This document shows positions 1,710-64,000 of a stretch of DNA of 64,000 nt, in pieces. Position numbers and translations under genes: made by a program. The notes beneath the pieces were generated by a model, which ran no database searches, was not told where the DNA came from, and saw only the letters and a list, made by a program, of their open reading frames with translations. Numbering within the stretch: the stretch's first letter is position 1; each line of letters begins with the position of its first letter. Source of the DNA: a virus (taxonomy: Duplodnaviria > Caudoviricetes). Where the stretch lies: positions 9,240 to 73,239 of the IMG/VR virus record IMGVR_UViG_3300017700_000409; one strand, given 5' to 3'.

Positions 1710-2026
1710 TACAAATTCCTCTTCAAGCCGTAGCGTCGCAGGTTCTTTCTATAGTCTTGGGTGGGCAAAATACTCAGCTGAATATTTATAGCAAATTTGG
1801 CACTCTCTATATGGATGTGTCGGTTAACAACTCTCCTATCATTCTTGGTGTTCAATGCCAGAATGGTAACCGCATCGTTCGTTCCGTCTATCTCGGGTTC
1901 CAAGGTGACTTGATATTTGTAGATACTCAAGGCTCCAGCAATCCGAACTTTGAAGGTTTGAATTCTCGTTTCCTTCTTCAGTATCTGACTGTTGATGATC
2001 TTGAGACGCTAGGGATTGAAACATAA
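1706..2026 (+). CDS. Baseplate plug-like protein
   Basis: 106 aa, MIQIPLQAVASQ...LYMDV...GDLIFVDTQG pattern; ATGA overlap with upstream gene; synteny. Confidence 0.6.
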   Translation: MIQIPLQAVASQVLSIVLGGQNTQLNIYSKFGTLYMDVSVNNSPIILGVQCQNGNRIVRSVYLGFQGDLIFVDTQGSSNPNFEGLNSRFLLQYLTVDDLETLGIET

Positions 2027-3009
2027 TGCCTTTCATCGAGCGGCAAATAACAGTAACGATCACCCTACAGTCAAGGCTTGGTTCCCCAACGAGAGGTATC
2101 GCAGCGAATGCGAACCCGACATTTGCAGGGACATCGAGCAACACAGTCAAGATAACCGGGGGTGGCGCTGCTGCACAAAATGGCTATCGGATTTCAGCCC
2201 GGGTAACTAGGGCGGGCAATCCGAGTTTTGGGGATGCTGATGTACAGATTTACAATCTCCCGGAGTCAATTGCTAAGCAGGTTTCAACTCTGGGCGTCCC
2301 GTTGGCTTATATGGTCGGAGCCAACAGCATAATAATTCAGGCAAATGATGTCGGCTCTCCTCCGACAACGATATTCTACGGAACGATAAACACTGCCTGG
2401 ATGGACTATCAAGCGTTGCCCGATAGCATCTTCAATATCTCAGCCCACTCTCTCGGGATATATGGCTCTGCCCCTGCTGCCCCTTTGAGCATACAAGGCG
2501 CAAGTCTTATCTCTTCGATCCTCGGAAATCTTGCGCCGCTTGTTGGATTGAAACTCATAAGCCTTTTTTCGAGTGGGGACACAGAGCCTAGTCTTTCAAA
2601 TCAGTATCTCCCCGGCTCTCTTCGTGATCAGATAAGGGCTGTGTGTCAAAAGGCGGGTATTGATTATACAATTGACGATGTAACAAGCTCACTAATCATA
2701 GCTCCAAAAAACAAAAGCCTTAATTTGACCGGGGCTCCCGTTCCGATTATCGGGCCTCCTCCTATTGGAAACATGGTTGGTTATCCGTCTTACACAGCAC
2801 AGGGCCTCCGGGTTAGAAGCGAGTTCACAACCGCGATAGGCTTCGGGAGTGATGTGATAATAAAAGGCAGCAGCCAGGATGTCGCAAACGGGACGTGGAA
2901 GGTTACATACCTTGACTATGATCTCGAATGCCAGGCAGAAAACGGACCTTGGTTTACTAATCTTGAACTTGCAGCCCCAGGCTACGCTGTAGCAGCACCA
3001 TCGAGGTAA
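2026..3009 (+). CDS. Baseplate hub protein (gp27/gpD-like)
   Basis: 327 aa; ADVQIYNL, TIFYGTI and GMVGYPSY-like motifs; synteny before spike. Confidence 0.65.
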   Translation: MPFIERQITVTITLQSRLGSPTRGIAANANPTFAGTSSNTVKITGGGAAAQNGYRISARVTRAGNPSFGDADVQIYNLPESIAKQVSTLGVPLAYMVGANSIIIQANDVGSPPTTIFYGTINTAWMDYQALPDSIFNISAHSLGIYGSAPAAPLSIQGASLISSILGNLAPLVGLKLISLFSSGDTEPSLSNQYLPGSLRDQIRAVCQKAGIDYTIDDVTSSLIIAPKNKSLNLTGAPVPIIGPPPIGNMVGYPSYTAQGLRVRSEFTTAIGFGSDVIIKGSSQDVANGTWKVTYLDYDLECQAENGPWFTNLELAAPGYAVAAPSR

Positions 3010-3012
3010 TAA

Positions 3013-3684
3013 ATGGCCGAAGGCAATCAGGCGTACGCAGGGCAAAGAGATTTCCCGTCCGCCAACTCGCAATACAATGTTATGGAGTTTGTATTCCGTG
3101 TCTTAGCTGGACAGATGGCGACCTGTACCCTGGTTAAAGTCATGGCGGTTTATCCTGGGGACGATCTAACCCCAGGGTCAATTGATGCGCTTCCCTTAGT
3201 TAATCAACAAGATGCTCTCGGCAACACGACGCCACACGCAACTATATATGGCCTTCCTTTCTCTCGGGTACAAGCCGGGGCAGCGGCTGTAATTGTAGAC
3301 CCTGCTGTTGGTGATATCGGCATCGCAGTTTTCGCGAGCCGGGATATTACATCAGTCAAGAACAATGTAAGAGATGATAAAGACCCGCAATCAAGTCCAG
3401 GTTCATTCCGGCAATTTGATTACTCGGATGGCTTGTATCTCTTCACGGCTCTTAGCAAGACCGAACCAACAGACTATGTCCAAATACTTCCAGATGGCGG
3501 AATAAACCTAAAGGACCGCTTCAACAATAGCATCGAGATGGCTAGCGGGGGAATAACTATCAACGGCATCTTCTTCCCGACTAGTGGAATAGAATTCAAC
3601 ATCAAGACGCACAAGCACACACAGCCTAACGATAGCCACGGCGACACGGAACAGCCGACAAACGCCCCAACAAATGGATCGTAA
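3013..3684 (+). CDS. Baseplate central spike (gp5/gpV/Gp138-like)
   Basis: PAVGDIGIAVFASRDI and RQFDYSDGLY motifs; C-terminal THKH metal-binding tip motif. Confidence 0.8.
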   Translation: MAEGNQAYAGQRDFPSANSQYNVMEFVFRVLAGQMATCTLVKVMAVYPGDDLTPGSIDALPLVNQQDALGNTTPHATIYGLPFSRVQAGAAAVIVDPAVGDIGIAVFASRDITSVKNNVRDDKDPQSSPGSFRQFDYSDGLYLFTALSKTEPTDYVQILPDGGINLKDRFNNSIEMASGGITINGIFFPTSGIEFNIKTHKHTQPNDSHGDTEQPTNAPTNGS

Positions 3685-7903: not shown

Positions 7904-9259
7904 ATGAAACAAATGTTCAAGAAGCTTTTTCTTTTAGCTGTCCTGACGATCTTCCCTGCCATAGAAGCACAAGCCCTTACTGCTGGGTGCTCTGCTCCGC
8001 CCCCCTCTTATGGGGTGGTGTGGTCTCCAAGCCAGTGGGTTACTTGCCTTTCATCTTTTCAAGCTAACCTTGGATATGTTCCGCTAAATTCAGCGGGCGG
8101 CTCGATGAGCGGGGAGCTATTTGTTGCCCCGTCAATTACCTCTAACGCTCCTCTGAATTTCCCATTGGGAGTTGCGCCTACATCTCCAACGAATGGAGAC
8201 TTGTGGTTCACCTCCTCGGGCCTCTTCTATCGGGCGGGTGGAGTTTCGGTTGGGCCTCTTGCTGGAACCACCAGCCAGACCTTCATCAACCCGACCTTCA
8301 CAGGAACCGCGACGTTCCCTGATGGAACCACCTGGACGTCAGCTGTAATTACTCCGGGAACGGCACCTTGGGCGTCTCTTACATCTACAGGCACAACGAT
8401 ACTTGGCGGGGCTTCAGCGGCTGAAGGCCTTCGTGTATATCCTATCGCAAGTGCGGTAAATCGATGGTCAATGAGCGGCAATACAACGGGAAATTCCCCC
8501 GTTCTTATTGCCGATGGAAGCAACACAGATATCTCGGGCACCTACTATACGAAGGGAACGGGCGGTCATTCTTTCTATACAGGCGCGGCGGGTGGAGGGT
8601 CTACGAGCGGAGGTGTCTTACAGGTTGCGATCCTCAACACCTCATCCGCTTCCCGATATGTTACGATTACAGGAAGTAACGGGGGAACCCCTGCGATAAA
8701 CACTTCCGCTGGCGCATTACAGCTTGGGTCAGCTGCTTCTGCTGGTCTTAATGTAACTGGGGGAACGAACCAACTAACAATAACCGGGGGAACCGCTCCG
8801 GCGATAAACACCAGCGCTGGTAATTTAGCGATAGGAAGCGCAGGGGCAACAACATCGCTTTCTGATGCTGCCGTTCAGCTTTCTAATGCCGGCTATCACA
8901 GTTGTGATAGTTTAGGAACGAGTGGCGCCGGGACTATAACTTGTGGTGGCGCGCCATCTGGATATATCACATATAACGATGATATAACAACCAATACAGC
9001 CGCAGCCACAGGCAATCTCTATTGTATGAATACTGCCTCGGGGGCGTTGACACTAACTCTCCCTGCCTCCCCAAGCAATGGAGCTTATGTTGCTTTCTCG
9101 GATTGTGGCGGAAACTTTGGAGCTAACGCCTTGACGATTGCTAGGAATGGCAGCAATATTATGTATTCGGCGGGTAACATGACGGTATCAACCCCCTACG
9201 CAGGCGGGGTTCTCCGGTACTCGAATGGACGCACAAGCTGGATACTTAGCCCGCTCTAA
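7904..9259 (+). CDS. Tail-fibre/receptor-binding-like protein with N-terminal signal-peptide-like sequence
   Basis: Gly/Thr/Ser-rich; APTSPTNGDLW and TLTLPASPSNG..LTIARNGSNI fibre-type motifs; N-terminus MKQMFKKLFLLAVLTIFPAIEAQA. Confidence 0.6.
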   Translation: MKQMFKKLFLLAVLTIFPAIEAQALTAGCSAPPPSYGVVWSPSQWVTCLSSFQANLGYVPLNSAGGSMSGELFVAPSITSNAPLNFPLGVAPTSPTNGDLWFTSSGLFYRAGGVSVGPLAGTTSQTFINPTFTGTATFPDGTTWTSAVITPGTAPWASLTSTGTTILGGASAAEGLRVYPIASAVNRWSMSGNTTGNSPVLIADGSNTDISGTYYTKGTGGHSFYTGAAGGGSTSGGVLQVAILNTSSASRYVTITGSNGGTPAINTSAGALQLGSAASAGLNVTGGTNQLTITGGTAPAINTSAGNLAIGSAGATTSLSDAAVQLSNAGYHSCDSLGTSGAGTITCGGAPSGYITYNDDITTNTAAATGNLYCMNTASGALTLTLPASPSNGAYVAFSDCGGNFGANALTIARNGSNIMYSAGNMTVSTPYAGGVLRYSNGRTSWILSPL

Positions 9260-55808: not shown

Positions 55809-56119
55809 GAGGAAATTGGTCTAGGCGCACCGTCCTAATTGACGGCAACCGCATCGACTTCACTTTGGCAGAATGGTTCTTGTTCCGTGAGCTTTTGGCG
55901 GAGCGGGGCACGCCAATTGATTCACTCTCGCTTCACAACAGGATGTATAACCACAGGCGAGATGGCGGACCAAGCTTGAATACAATGGCGAAACACATGG
56001 ATGCGGTTCGTAAGAAGTTAGAACCCACCCGCTTCCGCATTCCCAAGATAAGGGGAACCGGGTGCTTCCAAGGCGGACGATGGATCAAACTCGAAAGGCT
56101 TGAATATGCTCAAGCGTAA
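55805..56119 (+). CDS. Stand-alone OmpR/PhoB-type winged-helix DNA-binding domain
   Basis: IDFTLAEWFLFREL...SLNTMAKHMDAVRKKL...IPKIRGTG; no receiver domain. Confidence 0.7.
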   Translation: MRGNWSRRTVLIDGNRIDFTLAEWFLFRELLAERGTPIDSLSLHNRMYNHRRDGGPSLNTMAKHMDAVRKKLEPTRFRIPKIRGTGCFQGGRWIKLERLEYAQA

Positions 56120-57812
56120 AGCCATCCCAAGAAAACAAAAGACGCGAGCCATAGCAAAGCCCAAGCCACAAGCGGGCTTCGTGATGACTGTCGCGCAAAA
56201 GCTTCAGAACCTTCTCGATGGCTTAAGGGGGATGGCGTCTGAAAAGTTCTCCCGTCGCAAGATGTTTGAAATCCACCAGCCTTTCCCCGGTGTCGTTCCC
56301 GTCAGCACCAAGAAGGAAACGCTTTTAGCTATGGACAATGCCATCGGGTCCATGAGCTCATTTGCTTTCGCCATGGGCGGTTGGGACCAAGCCGGGTTCC
56401 TAGGTTACGCCTTCTTATCCGAGTTGTCGCAGATAACTGAATACCGCCGTCCCGCTGAAATCCTCGCCAACGAGATGACGCGTAAGTGGGGCAAGCTTGT
56501 TTCAACATCCGATGATGAAGCCAGCAAGCGCAAGCTCAAAGAACTGGAAGATGATCTCAAGAAGTTCAATGTCCAGGAAGTCTTCGGCATCGCTTTCGAG
56601 TTGGACAACTTCTTCGGCATCGGGCATATCTACATTGACGTAGGCACCGAGGGCGAGGAACTAAAGTCCCCGTTGCTGATCAACAAGACCAAGATTGGAG
56701 TGGGAACGCTCAAGGCACTACGGCCTGTTGAGCCGATGTGGACATATCCGAATGTCTACAATGCGAACAATCCGCTGAAGGATCAGTTCTATGATCCTGA
56801 GACGTGGTTTGTGATGGGGACTGAAGTCAACAAGTCGAGACTGTTGCGCTTCATCTCGCGCCCCATTCCCGATATGCTCAAACCAGCATACTTGTTCGGT
56901 GGTGTATCGCTGACGCAGCTTATGGAGCCCTACGTCAACAACTGGCTCCAGACCCGTCAAAGCGTTTCGGAAATCACCCGCAATTATTCAACGCCTGTCC
57001 TTAAGACGGACATGGACCAGATGACACAGACGCAAGGCGCGCAAGTCGTTGCGAACCGTGCTGCTGTCTATAACATTATGCGCACCAACCAAGGTCTTCT
57101 GGTGTGCGACAAGGAGAAGGAAGACTTTGAAATTGTCTCGGCCTCTCTCTCTGGCTTAAGCGAGCTACAGGCCCAGGCAATTGAGCAAATGGCATTCCCC
57201 GCCGGCATCCCTTTGGTGAAGCTCCTCGGGGTTACGCCCTCGGGACTTAATGCTAGCTCTGATGGCGAAGTGCGTACGTTCTATGACTCGATTGCCTCAC
57301 TCCAGGAGAAAGTAGGCACGCCAAACTTGATGAAGATCATCGAGATACTTCAACTAAACCGCTATGGGGTTATTGACCCGGGCATCAAGTGGGAGTGGGC
57401 TCAGCTTTGGGAACTGGACGAAGAGAAGAAGGCGGCATTGCGTAAGACGGATGCCGAAACTGACGTCATCTACCTTGAAGCGGGCATTCTTGATGGGAAG
57501 GCAATCCTCGATAAGCTCTCATCTGACCCTGACTCAAGGTATGCTGGACTTGACCTTGGGGAACTGCCTGATCCGCTCGCTGCGGGCCAGAACGACTTGA
57601 GCCTTGAGGATGTTGTTGGGGAAGTGTCTGCTAAGTCTATCCTCAAGGATGAAGAGGATGATCCGAGGGAGACACGCCAAGGAAGAGCAGCGCCAGAGCC
57701 GAGGCCCGCAAGGACAGCCGAGGAAGCGCGACCCGCTGAGCACCAGCCACCGGGCCGTGGCGAGGAAAGAAACGCAGGAAGAAGTTTAGCTGAAAGGAAA
57801 CCACTGAGATGA
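56100..57812 (+). CDS. Portal protein (DUF1073 type)
   Basis: FLGYAFLSELSQ, TRKW, LFGGVSL, SLSGLSEL, GIPLVKLLG.TPSGLNASSDGE. Confidence 0.9.
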   Translation: MNMLKRKAIPRKQKTRAIAKPKPQAGFVMTVAQKLQNLLDGLRGMASEKFSRRKMFEIHQPFPGVVPVSTKKETLLAMDNAIGSMSSFAFAMGGWDQAGFLGYAFLSELSQITEYRRPAEILANEMTRKWGKLVSTSDDEASKRKLKELEDDLKKFNVQEVFGIAFELDNFFGIGHIYIDVGTEGEELKSPLLINKTKIGVGTLKALRPVEPMWTYPNVYNANNPLKDQFYDPETWFVMGTEVNKSRLLRFISRPIPDMLKPAYLFGGVSLTQLMEPYVNNWLQTRQSVSEITRNYSTPVLKTDMDQMTQTQGAQVVANRAAVYNIMRTNQGLLVCDKEKEDFEIVSASLSGLSELQAQAIEQMAFPAGIPLVKLLGVTPSGLNASSDGEVRTFYDSIASLQEKVGTPNLMKIIEILQLNRYGVIDPGIKWEWAQLWELDEEKKAALRKTDAETDVIYLEAGILDGKAILDKLSSDPDSRYAGLDLGELPDPLAAGQNDLSLEDVVGEVSAKSILKDEEDDPRETRQGRAAPEPRPARTAEEARPAEHQPPGRGEERNAGRSLAERKPLR

Positions 57813-57987: not shown

Positions 57988-58377
57988 ATGACATTACGGG
58001 AAGAGAATGACCGCCGAGATAGGCGCGACTTAGATCGCAAGTTTGAGAAGCTTGATATGGACATAAAGAATGTTGCCGCCATTCACGCTCAAGAGATGAG
58101 CGACATGGAAGGCCGGATGTCCGAAGTCGCTACATGGCAAGGAACCCATGATGCGAAAGACGAAGAGAGATGGAAGAACAACGGAGAGAAGTGGGCAGCT
58201 AACGATAAAAGGCATGAAGGCATGGACCTAAAGCTCAACGCCATCATCGGCACATCAATCCTAACACTTCTATCTGCTCTTGGCTTCTTCGTGACGCTCT
58301 GGATTGATCGTCAAGAAGGCAAGTCAGCGGCAGCAAAAGAACCTCCCCGTATTGCCCAACAATGGGAAAACCAATGA
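57988..58377 (+). CDS. Coiled-coil protein with C-terminal TM helix
   Basis: Charged heptads followed by AIIGTSILTLLSALGFFVTLWI. Confidence 0.6.
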   Translation: MTLREENDRRDRRDLDRKFEKLDMDIKNVAAIHAQEMSDMEGRMSEVATWQGTHDAKDEERWKNNGEKWAANDKRHEGMDLKLNAIIGTSILTLLSALGFFVTLWIDRQEGKSAAAKEPPRIAQQWENQ

Positions 58378-58610
58378 GCGTCTTGCCCCGTATCTGCTAC
58401 CCTTTATCCGAGGATGCTGAATATAGGGCAGGGCCTCGGAAGTGGAGCGTTATTTGTAAGGTTAAGGACGCGAGCGGGAAGATGGTTATCAAGTCGCCAC
58501 CTGTCAATGTTATTGCCTTAAGTGAAGCGGCGGCTAATCAAAAGGCCATCGCCAATCTCAAGGCGCAAGGTTTCTCTTCGGTTGAAGTCTACAGCACAAT
58601 GGAGATATGA
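58374..58610 (+). CDS. Small head-module protein with MSVLP leader (copy A)
   Basis: MSVLPRICYPLSED-A...; ATGA overlap with upstream stop. Confidence 0.65.
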   Translation: MSVLPRICYPLSEDAEYRAGPRKWSVICKVKDASGKMVIKSPPVNVIALSEAAANQKAIANLKAQGFSSVEVYSTMEI

Positions 58611-58611
58611 A

Positions 58612-58812
58612 ATGAGTGTCCTTCCGAAGATCGCCACACCTAACTCCTTGGCTATGGATCAGAAATGGACTGTAGAAACCATTGACGAAGGCACTCCACA
58701 CAAGATCAAAAACCTGGAAGCCTCTTCTTATGAGGGTGCGATTGAACGAGCAAAGAGAGTTTATCCACACTTGAAAGAACGGAAGCTAAAGGCTTTCATC
58801 ACAGGCATTTAA
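58612..58812 (+). CDS. Small head-module protein with MSVLP leader (copy B)
   Basis: MSVLPKIATPNSLAMD-Q...; SD GGAG at 58601. Confidence 0.65.
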   Translation: MSVLPKIATPNSLAMDQKWTVETIDEGTPHKIKNLEASSYEGAIERAKRVYPHLKERKLKAFITGI

Positions 58813-58824
58813 AGGCAGAGCGCC

Positions 58825-59628
58825 ATGCCCAAGAAAACAAATGAAACAATCCTCCCGTCCATCAAGCCCAATGCTGTTTTGGAAGCTCGCTTCCGCAAGC
58901 GCCTAAATGCTTTGATCGAGGAGATGAACAAGTCCGTTATCTATTGGATCGCAGCCCAGTGGCGCAAGGACACTCCAGTATTGGCCGAGGACGCGAAGCG
59001 GAGGACCCCGGCTGATAAGCTCGCTGAACAAATGGAAGAGCTAGCGGAGAAGTGGAAGGCTCGCTTTGATGAGGCAGCGGAAGAGTTATCCGAATACTAT
59101 GCCCAAGGCATAGCAGACCGTTCAGACAAGCAGTTGCGCGCGGCACTTCGCAAGTCGGGCTTCTCGGTCGAGTTCAAGCCGACCAAGGCCCAAAAGGATA
59201 TCATCTCAGCGACAGTCCACGAGAGCGCAGCACTTATCAAGTCAATCCCGGACAAGTATCTAACGGACGCAACCGGGGACATTATGCGTTCAGTCCAAAA
59301 GGGCGGGGACCTAGCGGGGCTCTCTAAGAAGCTCCAAGAGAACTACGGGGTGACGAAGCGTAGAGCACACACGATTGCCCGCGATCAGAACAACAAGGCA
59401 ACCGCTGCCTTGAACCGGGGCAGGCAGATCGAGTTGGGGATCACCGAGGCGATATGGCGCCATAGTCACGCAGGCAAGTCTCCTCGCCCAACGCATGTGA
59501 AGATGAACGGGAAACGCTACAACGTTGACGAGGGAATGTGGGACTCAGCTGTTGGTGAATATGTCCTGCCTGGACAGCTTATCAATTGCCGGTGTACTTC
59601 CCGCTCGGTCATAAAGGGGTTCATCTGA
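58825..59628 (+). CDS. MuF/SPP1 gp7-like head morphogenesis protein
   Basis: RRAHTIARDQNNKA, AIWRHS...PRPTH, PGQLINCRC. Confidence 0.9.
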   Translation: MPKKTNETILPSIKPNAVLEARFRKRLNALIEEMNKSVIYWIAAQWRKDTPVLAEDAKRRTPADKLAEQMEELAEKWKARFDEAAEELSEYYAQGIADRSDKQLRAALRKSGFSVEFKPTKAQKDIISATVHESAALIKSIPDKYLTDATGDIMRSVQKGGDLAGLSKKLQENYGVTKRRAHTIARDQNNKATAALNRGRQIELGITEAIWRHSHAGKSPRPTHVKMNGKRYNVDEGMWDSAVGEYVLPGQLINCRCTSRSVIKGFI

Positions 59629-59846
59629 TGTCCGTTCTTCCGAAGATCGCTCTGCCTAATTCTTTGGCTATGGACGCGAGTGAGTTTTATAACAGCAAGT
59701 CCGAAGCAATTGAAGCCGCAAAGAAGGCCCGAGAGAAGGGCCGCACAGTAAAGATATTCGAGCACAAGCAGAACATTGTTCATGCGAACAGCGGTGGAAG
59801 CCAGAGGGCGGAGACTGCTGTGAGGTACGAAGTCAAGGATGTCTAA
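59628..59846 (+). CDS. Small head-module protein with MSVLP leader (copy C)
   Basis: MSVLPKIALPNSLAMD-A...; TGATG overlap with MuF stop. Confidence 0.65.
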   Translation: MSVLPKIALPNSLAMDASEFYNSKSEAIEAAKKAREKGRTVKIFEHKQNIVHANSGGSQRAETAVRYEVKDV

Positions 59847-60157
59847 TGCCCCGAGAACCAACCCGAGATTTCGACTTCTTCAAACGGGTCATGAAACGTT
59901 GCCGACAATTCGGAATGAATGATTCCGAGATTGCGCGCGGCCTGGGCGTAAACCCGAGAACTGTTATATTTCACATAGGCCCAGGACGTACTTGGGCGAA
60001 AACAAAGAAGGCGAATAATTTTCTTGGCCGTGTAATGAGCCGCTTGATAACCGCCCCAATTCGTTTGAAACAGAAAGACATTGCGGAGTTGTATGGCTTC
60101 TCTTCCGCTTATGTCTGCGTGCTGATTAAAGAAGCCCGCTATCCTTGGACTATTTAA
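59846..60157 (+). CDS. Double-HTH protein
   Basis: MNDSEIARGLGVNPRTV and KQKDIAELYGFSSAYV helices. Confidence 0.55.
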   Translation: MPREPTRDFDFFKRVMKRCRQFGMNDSEIARGLGVNPRTVIFHIGPGRTWAKTKKANNFLGRVMSRLITAPIRLKQKDIAELYGFSSAYVCVLIKEARYPWTI

Positions 60158-60721: not shown

Positions 60722-62818
60722 ATGAACGCAATTGTAAAACAGATCGCAGAGAAATTTTCCTCAGTCAAGGATATCTCGACTGGTAACGGCAAAATTACTT
60801 TGGCGCTCGGCAAGGATATGTTGCCCGAGGAGATGGACCAGTTGCGTTCATTAATTGATAAGTTCTTTTCGGAAGAGAAGGTGGAGAAGGAACACCAAGA
60901 TGGGCCGGGTGGACAAAAGCTCGGTGGCGGCTTGGTGCTCCTCGCTCCCACGGGCCGTGTCCTTCTTCTTAAGCGCGCGGACCATGAAAAGAATTATGGA
61001 GGCCATTGGGGGCTCCCGGGCGGGAAGGCAGAAGACGGGGAAGGCCCCGAGGATGCTGCCGCCCGGGAGTGTTTTGAAGAGACGGGCTACCAAGCCGTTG
61101 AAGTTGGCGAAGAGATTAGCAACGTCAACACTCCAAACGGGTTCAACTTCGTAACCTTCCTTCACAAATGCCCCGCTGAGTTTGTTCCTGACTTATCGGA
61201 TGGCGAGCACTCTGCCTTCCAGTGGGTTGAGCCGGGTTCGCCTCCCGAGATGACACATCCTGGCGTAGCGGAGACGCTCGCGGGATTAAATGTGTCGCAA
61301 GCCTCTGACTCAATCGCTTTCGATTGGAGCACTGTCCGGGACTTCGATGACGTTGGGCGAATGAAGGTCGCGTTGGCGCACATCTCTAAAGCTTGCGTCA
61401 ATCCATACTATGGAAAAGAAATCCCCGGCTGCGAAGCCTTGGGCCTCGATCCAGAGCGTATTTACCAATTGTTCCGCGACCCTAATGAACTGGAGAAGGC
61501 CGCGAGTACATTCAACAATATTCAAATTCTCATCCGACACACCCCGGTGACCGCTGACGATCATAAGCCGGATGAGATTGTGGGCACCACCGGGACTGAG
61601 GCTGCGTTCAATCCGCCTTATCTGGACAACTCGTTAACGATCTGGTCAAAGGAGGGGATTGCCGCGATACAAAGTGGATTACAAAAAGAACTGTCGTGCG
61701 GATATGGATACACCCCAGTCATGGAGCCCGGGGAATATCAAGGGCAACCCTATGATGGGCGCATGACGAATATCAGGGGTAATCACGTCGCCCTTGTGAG
61801 CAAGGGCCGTGCTGGCCCTGATGTTGTAGTTGGAGATGAAGCACTCAAACCCAAACAGGAGAAACAGATGAAGACAAAGCCGCTCTCACGGACGGCAGTC
61901 ATGGTCAGGGCGGCTCTTACCGCCTTCATCATGCCGAAGATCGCTCTGGATCAGGAATTGAAACTGACCACGGCGCTCACGACCGGATTGAAGGACTTCA
62001 ACCGGAAGGCCATGGAAAAGAAAGGCTTCAAAGAGGCCATCATCAAGATGGCGCGGGACGCGGCTGAGCCGCTGCTGCCTGAACCCGTAAAGAAAGAGGG
62101 CATTGGACCGGATGCGGTCATGATGCGCCTCCTCGATATGGTCGAAGGTCAGGCGACTTCCGAAGCTCCGGAGATGGATGCGGCAGGCGTTGCCGGCCCT
62201 GAAGCCGCAGTCGAGGAAGATGCCGCAGCGGTTGCGGCTCCTGGCGAGGATGGTGGTGAATGGCGCAAGTCAGCTATTGACGCCATGGTCCAGAAAGGCA
62301 TGTCGGAAGACGATGCCAATGCTATCTGCGACATGTTCCCGAAGACCGGGGCAAGTGATGTGAAGGAAGAAGACACATCAAATGCCGAGGATAACGAGGA
62401 AGAAGTTGCGGAAGACGATACCGAAACCCCTGAACAGAAAAAAGCCAAGGAGGAAGAAGTGAAGAAAGCCCAGGATGCGGCAATCACCACCGCCAAGACG
62501 GAAGTCAAAGCGGAAATGTTCCAGACCCTGAAAGATATCCGCGCTGCTGAAAAGGCCGTGCGTCCTTTGATCGGGGAAGTCTCTATCGCTGCCGACAGCG
62601 CCGCTGAAATCTATATCGCGGCACTCAAGCACTGTGGTGTCGCAACCGATGGCGTTCACCCCTCTGCCTTGCCGGCCTTGGTCGAAATGGCAGTCAAGAG
62701 CCGTGACACCAAGAAGACCAACCATGTTGTCGGTGACGCTGCCCTCTCGGGTGACGTCCTCGCTACATTTGAAAAGGACAACGGCATTGCTAGCCGTTCT
62801 GTCCGCGTCCTCAACTAA
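60722..62818 (+). CDS. Nudix hydrolase - DUF2213 prohead protease - scaffold fusion
   Basis: Complete Nudix box G-KAEDG-E-GPEDAAA-RECFEETGY; DUF2213 motifs (ISKACVNPYYGKEIP, KELSCGY, NHVALV..GRAG); acidic scaffold tail. Confidence 0.9.
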   Translation: MNAIVKQIAEKFSSVKDISTGNGKITLALGKDMLPEEMDQLRSLIDKFFSEEKVEKEHQDGPGGQKLGGGLVLLAPTGRVLLLKRADHEKNYGGHWGLPGGKAEDGEGPEDAAARECFEETGYQAVEVGEEISNVNTPNGFNFVTFLHKCPAEFVPDLSDGEHSAFQWVEPGSPPEMTHPGVAETLAGLNVSQASDSIAFDWSTVRDFDDVGRMKVALAHISKACVNPYYGKEIPGCEALGLDPERIYQLFRDPNELEKAASTFNNIQILIRHTPVTADDHKPDEIVGTTGTEAAFNPPYLDNSLTIWSKEGIAAIQSGLQKELSCGYGYTPVMEPGEYQGQPYDGRMTNIRGNHVALVSKGRAGPDVVVGDEALKPKQEKQMKTKPLSRTAVMVRAALTAFIMPKIALDQELKLTTALTTGLKDFNRKAMEKKGFKEAIIKMARDAAEPLLPEPVKKEGIGPDAVMMRLLDMVEGQATSEAPEMDAAGVAGPEAAVEEDAAAVAAPGEDGGEWRKSAIDAMVQKGMSEDDANAICDMFPKTGASDVKEEDTSNAEDNEEEVAEDDTETPEQKKAKEEEVKKAQDAAITTAKTEVKAEMFQTLKDIRAAEKAVRPLIGEVSIAADSAAEIYIAALKHCGVATDGVHPSALPALVEMAVKSRDTKKTNHVVGDAALSGDVLATFEKDNGIASRSVRVLN

Positions 62819-62844: not shown

Positions 62845-64000
62845 ATGGGTTTTCCCCGTCAAGTAAACGTCCAGCCCGCGGTTGCGGTTGCTGGTGACTT
62901 CGCTTCGGACAATCCGCGCGCGACTGTTATTGCGGGCGTTGGTGCGTTCATCGCTGGCGCTCTCGGCCTGACTGTCGCGGCTTTCGCTTGGTCTGACCCG
63001 GATGATCCGGCTTTGCTCAACAGCTTTGGTTCCGGTCCTGTGACTGGCTTCATTGGTCGTGAAGGCCTTCGCGCGGATATCATCACCCCTGGCCCGGGAT
63101 ATCCGGATGCCAGCATGACGATCCTCGGCGGCTCCTTCATTACCGCCTACAGCACCGGCGACTTCTTCGTTGTTAACAACGGCGCTGCGGCCTCGGTTAT
63201 TGGGCAGAAGGCATATGCCGACTTCTCGACCGGGCTGGCGAGCTTCGCGGCCACGGGCACTCCGCCCACTTCGGCTGTTATTGGCGCGGGCACGATTGCG
63301 AAGAACGTCTTGAACGTCTCCGCTATCGCGATCAACGCTTTCACCGGCTCGATCAGCGGCACCACCCTCACCGTCTCTGCCGTCGCCACAGGGGGCTTGT
63401 TCCCCGATCAGGTGATTGCGGGCGGTAATACGTCAAACCCGGTTGACCCCGGCACGGTTATCGTGTCGCAGTTGACGGGCTCTGCCGGCGGCACGGGCAC
63501 TTACGAAGTGTCCATCAGCCAGACTGTTGCTTCCGGGTCGATGACCGGCAGCGGTGGCTTGCTCACCGTCACCTCGCTTACCTCTGGCAAAGTTTGGGTG
63601 GGTCAGTCTATCACCCATTCCAGCGTCCAGGTCGGGACCTTGGTCACGGCGCAGGTTAGCGGAAGTGGCGGCGCTGGGACGTATGCCGTTAGCGTTGCGC
63701 AGACGGTTGCGAGCGTTGCGACTGGCGTTCTCTCAGGTGCCGTTCTTACCGCCACCACCCTCACCTCGGGTGCGTTGCGTGAGAATGATACCCTGTCGAG
63801 CACTTCCGGCACCTCCAGCATCCTCCCGTTCGGCACGGGCGGCACCACCGGGGTCGGCATCGGCGGCTCAACTACCTATGCCCTTAGCGATGATGGCAAC
63901 TACGGCGACACGGACTTCACTGTCAAGAGTGGCGTTGAAACGAAATGGTATGCGATGTCCGCCAATGCTGTTGGCGAACTCGTGACCATCAGTGCCACGC
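62845..64000 (+). CDS. Capsid decoration/minor head protein with inserted Gly/Thr-rich repeats (3'-truncated)
   Basis: SD AGGAG; MGFPRQVNVQPAVAVAGDFASDNPR N-terminus; open to window end; C-terminal ETKWYAMS..GELV. Confidence 0.8.
   Translation, partial: MGFPRQVNVQPAVAVAGDFASDNPRATVIAGVGAFIAGALGLTVAAFAWSDPDDPALLNSFGSGPVTGFIGREGLRADIITPGPGYPDASMTILGGSFITAYSTGDFFVVNNGAAASVIGQKAYADFSTGLASFAATGTPPTSAVIGAGTIAKNVLNVSAIAINAFTGSISGTTLTVSAVATGGLFPDQVIAGGNTSNPVDPGTVIVSQLTGSAGGTGTYEVSISQTVASGSMTGSGGLLTVTSLTSGKVWVGQSITHSSVQVGTLVTAQVSGSGGAGTYAVSVAQTVASVATGVLSGAVLTATTLTSGALRENDTLSSTSGTSSILPFGTGGTTGVGIGGSTTYALSDDGNYGDTDFTVKSGVETKWYAMSANAVGELVTISAT

Follow-up and report, generated by a model that had tools for sequence, protein, structure and literature searches.

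Three small proteins encoded around muF in a phage related to PB1 share a leader that ends in a predicted prohead-protease site

The window analysed here comprises 64,000 nucleotides (nt) of an uncultured phage related to PB1 (IMG/VR record IMGVR_UViG_3300017700_000409, positions 9,240 to 73,239) and corresponds to the last 64 kb of its 73,239-bp single-contig genome. The contig carries a terminal direct repeat of 123 bp, which points to a circular assembly. In the head module of this genome, three short open reading frames (ORFs), denoted A, B and C, flank muF, the gene of a minor head protein: A and B lie upstream of it and C directly downstream. The three predicted proteins begin with a common leader of the pattern MSVLP(K/R)I..P.S, which ends in LSED in A and in LAMD in B and C. 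The gene order of the module is terminase, portal, three small ORFs, A, B, MuF, C, a helix-turn-helix (HTH) protein, two small ORFs and a fusion of Nudix, DUF2213 and scaffold segments. The genes with which the analysis is mainly concerned are the following (aa, amino acids).

58374..58610, + strand: ORF A, 78 aa (stop at 58608-58610); leader residues 1-14 (58374-58415), MSVLPRICYPLSED, then AEYR
58612..58812, + strand: ORF B, 66 aa; leader residues 1-16 (58612-58659), MSVLPKIATPNSLAMD, then QKWT
59628..59846, + strand: ORF C, 72 aa; leader residues 1-16 (59628-59675), MSVLPKIALPNSLAMD, then ASEF
56100..57812, + strand: portal protein, 570 aa (Pfam Phage_portal_3)
58825..59628, + strand: MuF/SPP1 gp7-type minor head protein, 267 aa (Pfam Phage_Mu_F, E 7.5e-16)
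60722..62818, + strand: fusion of Nudix, DUF2213 (putative prohead protease) and scaffold, 698 aa (Pfam DUF2213, E 1.4e-46)

The start codon of A overlaps the stop of the preceding ORF (ATGA), and that of C overlaps the muF stop (TGATG) in a different frame, with AAGGGG 8 nt upstream as its own Shine-Dalgarno sequence. B is preceded by GGAG 7 nt upstream of its start and stops 12 nt before the start of muF. The codon-usage score of A, B and C was positive in the named frame only. A six-frame scan of the 73,239-bp genome found the leader, which contains three prolines, exactly three times. A first-pass annotation of this DNA had described three ORFs around muF that share a leader and then diverge completely, and had placed a putative protease site at the end of each leader. 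The ORFs are present as described, and LSED, LAMD and LAMD match the hydrophobic-Ala-x-Asp motif of the clade discussed below, with a deviation in A at P3.

The leaders of B and C are identical in 15 of 16 residues. Nine of the underlying codons are identical, six differ by synonymous changes (among them AGT and TCC for Ser, and TTG and CTT for Leu) and one differs by a non-synonymous change; in A, the residues M-S-V-L-P-(K/R)-I-x-x-P-x-S are retained while no more than 3-5 of the first 12 codons match those of the other leaders. Since synonymous codon changes underlie a near-identical peptide in B and C, selection acts on the peptide, and the comparison supports the view that the leader is a portable module maintained at the protein level. 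The sequences that follow it are unalike: pairwise Smith-Waterman comparison of the three bodies against 2000 shuffles revealed no significant similarity (p = 0.30, 0.99 and 0.21). B and C do form a direct repeat of 41 nt, 83% identical, with muF between the copies. Its role might lie in the DNA or RNA and not in the peptide, for example as a recombination junction, in enhancing translation or as a homing target. This is extremely improbable, given that the differences are concentrated at synonymous positions and that A retains the peptide with so few codons in common. The combination of synonymous divergence and unalignable bodies rules out recent duplication and gene conversion as well as an element acting as nucleic acid.

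The cut-site tetrapeptides in the leaders are L11-S-E-D14 in A and L13-A-M-D16 in B and C. Their counterparts in other head proteins became apparent from a comparison set of 160 related head modules (110 non-redundant) from IMG/VR and metagenomes, with MuF identities of 45-57%. In each of the scaffold, portal and MuF proteins (48-68 relatives) and in the capsid protein (about 38), one aligned position carries hydrophobic-Ala-x-Asp almost without exception. The corresponding positions in the present phage are listed below.

61934-61951 (PKIALD): scaffold site IMPKIALD410, then Q, about 35 residues past the DUF2213 domain; in relatives, P6 is Pro in 43/48, P3 is Ala in 46/48 and P1 is Asp in 46/48
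56325-56336: predicted portal site LLAMD79, then N, ahead of the portal fold; in relatives, P3 is Ala in 62/63 and P1 is Asp in 62/63
58981-58992: predicted MuF site PVLAED56, then A; in relatives, P6 is Pro in 54/68, P3 is Ala in 65/68 and P1 is Asp in 67/68
Genome positions 167-1273 (whole gene; start of the genome, outside the window): major capsid protein with the predicted site NINVAMD50, then AQP; about 38 relatives have (L/I/M/F)A(M/L)D, then AQP

Across the conserved sites of scaffold, portal and MuF, P1 is Asp in 175 of 179 sequences. A six-frame search of the genome for the narrower pattern (L/I/M/V)AMD gave five occurrences, compared with a mean of 1.1 after shuffling; they are the end of the capsid propeptide, the portal protein, B, C and, as the fifth, a frame of 21 codons. 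The P1' residues of A, B and C (A, Q and A, respectively) fit the family profile. The N-terminal segments that end in the same predicted site comprise 50 residues in the capsid protein, 79 in the portal protein, 56 in MuF, 28 in the scaffold, 16 in B and C, and perhaps 14 in A. When the pattern is relaxed to [LIMVFS]-[AS]-x-D, nine matches are found in the 698-aa fusion, mostly in the scaffold part and seven of them past residue 440.

These data bear on a rival proposal in which the common N-terminus of A, B and C, whether they are paralogues or were tagged independently, serves some other interaction unconnected with the protease, such as binding to MuF or to the portal protein, oligomerization or stability, LAMD being coincidental. 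The location of the genes on either side of muF would suit such a role, and extreme divergence of small alpha/beta domains could account for the bodies; each contains an S-x-E-A-I/A-type helix, and a weak DUF2188 signal is obtained with C. However, (L/I/M/V)AMD is found in only four real ORFs, of which the two other than B and C have it at the predicted maturation sites of capsid and portal; the chance of finding hydrophobic-Ala-x-Asp inside a 16-residue N-terminus is about 2%; and the P1' residues match the family profile. We consider a coincidental LAMD unlikely.

The predicted capsid site aligns to SAMD64, followed by S65, of PB1, E217 and Pa193. The electron cryo-microscopy models of the E217 and Pa193 capsids start at residue 66; the authors of these studies noted the missing N-termini of the capsid protein (residues 1-65) and the portal protein (residues 1-93), and commented that capsid residues 1-65 may be cleaved (PMC10329688, PMC11456595). 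The first 93 residues of the Pa193 portal protein were without density and without peptides in LC-MS (mass spectrometry coupled to liquid chromatography; PMC11456595). At the aligned position, the PB1 portal protein reads VAMD76, then S, and the Pa193 scaffold contains RAMD413, then S. The conservation of the motif indicates that maturation cleavage in this clade very probably takes place after the Asp of hydrophobic-Ala-x-Asp. Among the papers covered, few of which mention DUF2213, none states this cleavage motif, and papers on phi24B and Pakpunavirus contained no relevant information. A conserved GD followed by F in the protein encoded after the protease was considered as a cleavage site and rejected: the protein is the decoration protein, whose residue 1 is already visible in both structures: for E217, residues 1-25 are described, and for Pa193, residues 1-211 are modelled (PMC10329688, PMC11456595). 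As a separate observation, the scaffold fragment seen in the Pa193 capsid (residues 286-326; gene at 1795-3231 of locus L083) falls between the predicted sites D214 and D358/D380, so that the part kept in the capsid may be a product of about 150 aa in which only a hairpin is ordered.

The enzyme that would cut at these sites is, we infer, the DUF2213 domain, on the basis of its PHROG and RefSeq annotation, its being the sole candidate in the module and its invariant His, Ser and His at residues 273, 325 and 355. This trio comprises the residue types of assemblin-like proteases. The fusion protein itself contains further predicted sites. At the start of the DUF2213 domain, the present phage has IAFD201, then W (61313-61324), and all relatives have (L/I)A(F/L/M)D, then R or K, with or without the Nudix fusion; in addition, the linkers between Nudix and protease domains of relatives often contain one or two extra AMD motifs. 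Because of these sites, the Nudix domain is probably released inside the head.

A second link between the leaders and the protease-scaffold protein was provided by the scaffold segment IMPKIALD, which corresponds to residues 403-410 of the Nudix-DUF2213-scaffold fusion. Residues 5-9 of the C leader (PKIAL) equal P6-P2 of the scaffold site, which is the best-conserved motif of the scaffold, and the underlying 15 nt are identical: the window contains exactly two copies of the 15-mer CCGAAGATCGCTCTG, one at 59640 and the other at 61934, as the first-pass annotation had recognised in pointing to an echo of IMPKIALD in the leader. Given the same peptide and the codon usage of this module, the chance of identical PKIAL codons is about 0.007, so that a copy or conversion event is likely. 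The correspondence does not extend to the cut itself. Comparison of the leader front, MSVLPKIA-L/T-P, with P-K-I-A-L-D of the scaffold places a proline at the position of the scissile Asp, and the predicted cut site of the leader lies six residues later.

It is conceivable that this mimic of the scaffold junction, PKIALP with an uncleavable Pro at P1, makes A, B and C decoy substrates or regulators, which would occupy the protease or a scaffold-binding site and thereby time assembly or activation. PKIA(L/T)P does reproduce P6-P2 of the scaffold without the Asp. A cleavable site nevertheless follows six residues later, and three different bodies would be hard to explain by such a role. We know of no precedent for decoy regulators of this kind and regard the possibility as very unlikely.

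The scaffold may also be produced independently of the protease. A conserved internal methionine, Met383 (61868), is located 28 residues before D410 and has AGGAG 7 nt upstream, and one relative (locus L037) encodes the scaffold in an ORF of its own, which begins with the conserved Met equivalent to Met383. These features suggest a nested, internally initiated scaffold protein, as in lambda C/Nu3. The scaffold would then probably have an N-terminal propeptide of the same kind as the leaders.

The explanation that we favour for these observations, with a probability of roughly 0.5, is that the leader is a removable propeptide: it would bring A, B and C, which would be small basic late proteins, into the procapsid, within which the scaffold-fused DUF2213 protease would clip it off. 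During procapsid assembly the leader would dock A, B and C onto the partner of the scaffold junction, which might be the protease, the scaffold core or the shell interior. The DUF2213 protease would then remove the leader, and mature proteins of 50-64 aa would remain in the head with the DNA. For this phage the explanation rests on sequence, with encapsidation and leader removal argued by analogy with T4; that A, B and C are cut and encapsidated, as well as what may later become of them, is what we infer on that footing. The strength of the individual steps differs. B and C are probably cleaved, as judged from their match to the clade motif. Cleavage of A is less certain owing to the Ser at P3. 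A targeting role of the leader is a tentative proposal by analogy, for which the balance falls slightly below even, and injection of A, B and C, or a role in counter-defence such as anti-restriction, is speculative and doubtful. Equally unlikely is the more far-reaching proposal that the 16-residue leader constitutes a transferable loading tag for capsids of the DUF2213 protease-scaffold type and that the mature proteins are injected with the DNA as counter-defence factors.

Several points weigh against a propeptide that loads cargo into the procapsid. The Ser at P3 of A contrasts with the Ala present in about 97% of the sites of the family, and cleavage alone does not prove targeting. The leader family is confined to one genome. 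The small junction ORFs of relatives are not significantly enriched in N-terminal sites (4 early versus 3 late hits). Finally, the protease activity of DUF2213 is argued from annotation and the invariant His, Ser and His trio, and a profile comparison of DUF2213 with HK97 gp4 by hhalign detected no similarity.

The leader could also be a processing signal and nothing else, with cleavage by the prohead protease or another Asp-specific protease turning A, B and C on or off in late infection, and no packaging of these proteins. The cleavage motif is indeed the best-supported part of the leader. In the staphylococcal phage 80alpha, moreover, capsid and scaffold proteins have shared N-terminal leaders without a targeting role, which are cut by the host L27 protease. 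Against a signal of this type, conservation between B and C, shared in part by A, also covers the 12 residues upstream of the site, which copy a scaffold segment; every other predicted substrate is a component of the procapsid; and fusion to the scaffold places the protease inside the shell. In view of these points we judge a mere processing signal to be rather unlikely, and continue to favour a propeptide with a role in loading.

The predicted mature proteins comprise 64 aa (A), 50 aa (B) and 56 aa (C), have masses of 5.8-6.9 kDa and a calculated isoelectric point of about 9.5 each. Single-sequence AlphaFold2 modelling of A yielded a coil for residues 1-21, followed by a compact beta-beta-beta-alpha-beta domain (mean predicted local distance difference test score, pLDDT, 73.6). 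The model of B has a poor fold of low confidence, with the leader as a coil. With the A model, a Foldseek search of the PDB gave no match below E 0.1. Its fold neighbours in a protein atlas are unnamed proteins of 59-72 aa, which cover A only from residues 15-20 onward; the atlas gave, besides these, a generic fold resembling that of ribosomal LX. A homologue of the C body was identified in a full HMMER search (P0005; 52 aa, 48% identity, E 4e-5). It aligns to residues 21-70 of C and begins where the C leader ends; it is encoded on a short contig of 585 bp, and scans of viral and genome contigs for its genomic context found nothing. A second full-HMMER match to C was discarded as a repetitive false match. 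The apparently leaderless P0005 and the fold neighbours of A fit a scenario in which the leader was added onto pre-existing small domains.

No function could be assigned to the bodies from matches in Pfam, PHROGs or NCBIfam. For the body of C, DUF2188 (PF09954) was considered and set aside: the match reached 18.8 bits (E 0.0018), which is below the Pfam gathering threshold of 22 bits, and covers only positions 20-53 of the 62 in the profile. DUF2188 has been linked bioinformatically to conflict systems, and this sub-threshold match is a weak lead towards counter-defence.

No leader-bearing homologue was found among 5.8 billion protein clusters. Similarly, when B, C or a three-protein profile was used in word-indexed searches, only A, B and C themselves were returned, and a degenerate DNA pattern for the leader had no match in IMG/VR. 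The closest MuF proteins in IMG/VR and metagenome contigs do not exceed 57% identity. Within the comparison set (160 loci, 110 non-redundant), small ORFs that share N-termini with one another or match PK(L/I)A of their own scaffold occurred only at chance level. The earlier suggestion of a general system in DUF2213 phages found no support in this comparison, as none of the approximately 110 non-redundant head modules has matching small ORFs or a common leader.

A few accessory ORFs in the portal-MuF interval of relatives do contain a site near their N-terminus, which we regard as anecdotal. In L010 (4614-4988) RRLAMD is followed by AETKHDPSNGQF; in L087 (890-1288) RMALD is followed by AEQERKDNGQF; in L066 (4465-4998) LAFD is followed by G and then DHPRSDNGQF; and in L074 TILAMD is followed by ES. 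In relatives we also observed, a few residues past predicted cleavage sites, the motif H-(D/P)-(P/R)-x-(D/S)-N-G-(Q/K)-F followed by a Gly/Ser-rich stretch. It is borne by L010, L087, L066 and L068:998-3832 and by the protease linkers of L007 and L022.

Support for the presence of small junction-encoded proteins in virions comes from Pa193, in which LC-MS of virions detected gp20 and gp21 (PMC11456595). From the gene order we take them to be MuF and the product of the 68-aa ORF that follows it. Small proteins encoded at this junction can therefore be virion components; the Pa193 protein of 68 aa is without the leader. PB1 gp21, with RRLATD followed by V, was examined as an analogue and dismissed, since Pa193 has LVVD at the same position.

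Leaders that are clipped off are a known kind of element from T4 and the giant phages; what would be new here is their occurrence in a different head-assembly lineage, together with the inferred cleavage code. The capsid-targeting sequence of T4 (internal proteins IPI, IPII and IPIII, and Alt; prohead protease gp21) is likewise a short common N-terminal peptide on small, basic, unrelated proteins. It, too, ends at the site of the phage's own maturation protease, and the predicted mature sizes are near that of IPI* (76 aa). The two systems differ in the protease, which belongs to the gp21 family in T4 and would here be DUF2213, fused to Nudix and scaffold and the sole protease candidate in the head module. 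They also differ in the site, which is cut after Glu in (L/I)-x-E in T4 and predicted to be cut after Asp in hydrophobic-Ala-x-Asp here. The present leader further has three prolines and a copy of the scaffold junction, and its three members are arranged around muF.

In giant phages (phiKZ gp175, 201phi2-1, SPN3US gp245), N-terminal propeptides on many internal head proteins, and on ejection proteins, are similarly removed at a short consensus of the prohead protease (PMC5694885, PMC7411985, PMC10052503). Those phages, however, have (S/A/G)-x-E sites, genomes of at least 200 kb and dozens of substrates, whereas the present phage has a genome of 73 kb, predicted Asp-specific sites and near-identical leaders. 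The Pbunaviruses PB1, E217 and Pa193 share the order portal, MuF, small ORFs, DUF2213 protease-scaffold, decoration and capsid as well as the A-M-D motifs (PMC10329688, PMC11456595). The papers on these phages name no cleavage motif and assign no protease function (PMC10329688, PMC11456595), and their small ORFs after muF are without such a leader. Accessory cargo tied to MuF or head genes and thought to be packaged in heads has been described for MuF-fused polyvalent effectors (Iyer et al. 2017, PMC5512222), and the Dar proteins of P1 are comparable. Unlike the MuF-fused effectors, A, B and C lie outside the MuF polypeptide, each in a small ORF that has its own start and a predicted cleavable tag. 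Short terminal peptides also direct cargo inside an HK97-fold shell in the case of the encapsulin cargo-loading peptides and the targeting tail of the HK97 protease; these are C-terminal, are not removed and are unrelated in sequence to the leader.

If the explanation is correct, capsid loading by a clip-off tag would extend from T4-like and giant phages to the DUF2213 lineage, a large clade that includes the PB1-like phages (Pbunaviruses) used in therapy. The Asp-specific rule, hydrophobic-Ala-x-Asp, would be a previously unstated one that is open to testing, and would explain why the structures of E217 and Pa193 lack capsid residues 1-65 and approximately 90 portal residues. In addition, foreign proteins could be loaded into such capsids by means of a simple handle, a tag of 16 residues whose cut site is defined.

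The following genes of the head module complete the description of the locus.

62845..64000, + strand: decoration protein, running past the window end; N-terminus resembling PB1 gp23, followed by repeats
59846-60157: 103-aa protein (Pfam HTH_23, E 7.5e-6) that contains two helix-turn-helix-like segments
57988-58377: 129-aa ORF between portal and A

The ORF at 62845 had initially been taken for the major capsid protein; it encodes the decoration protein instead, the capsid gene being the one at genome positions 167-1273. The decoration protein contains three Thr/Gly/Ser-rich repeats of about 65 aa, and the corresponding DNA repeats lie at 63354, 63549 and 63747. The 129-aa ORF has no family match; its N-terminal part is charged and coiled-coil-like, and its C-terminal part contains one transmembrane-like helix. 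The 103-aa protein is translationally coupled to C, and its position in the middle of the head module is unusual for a DNA-binding regulator.

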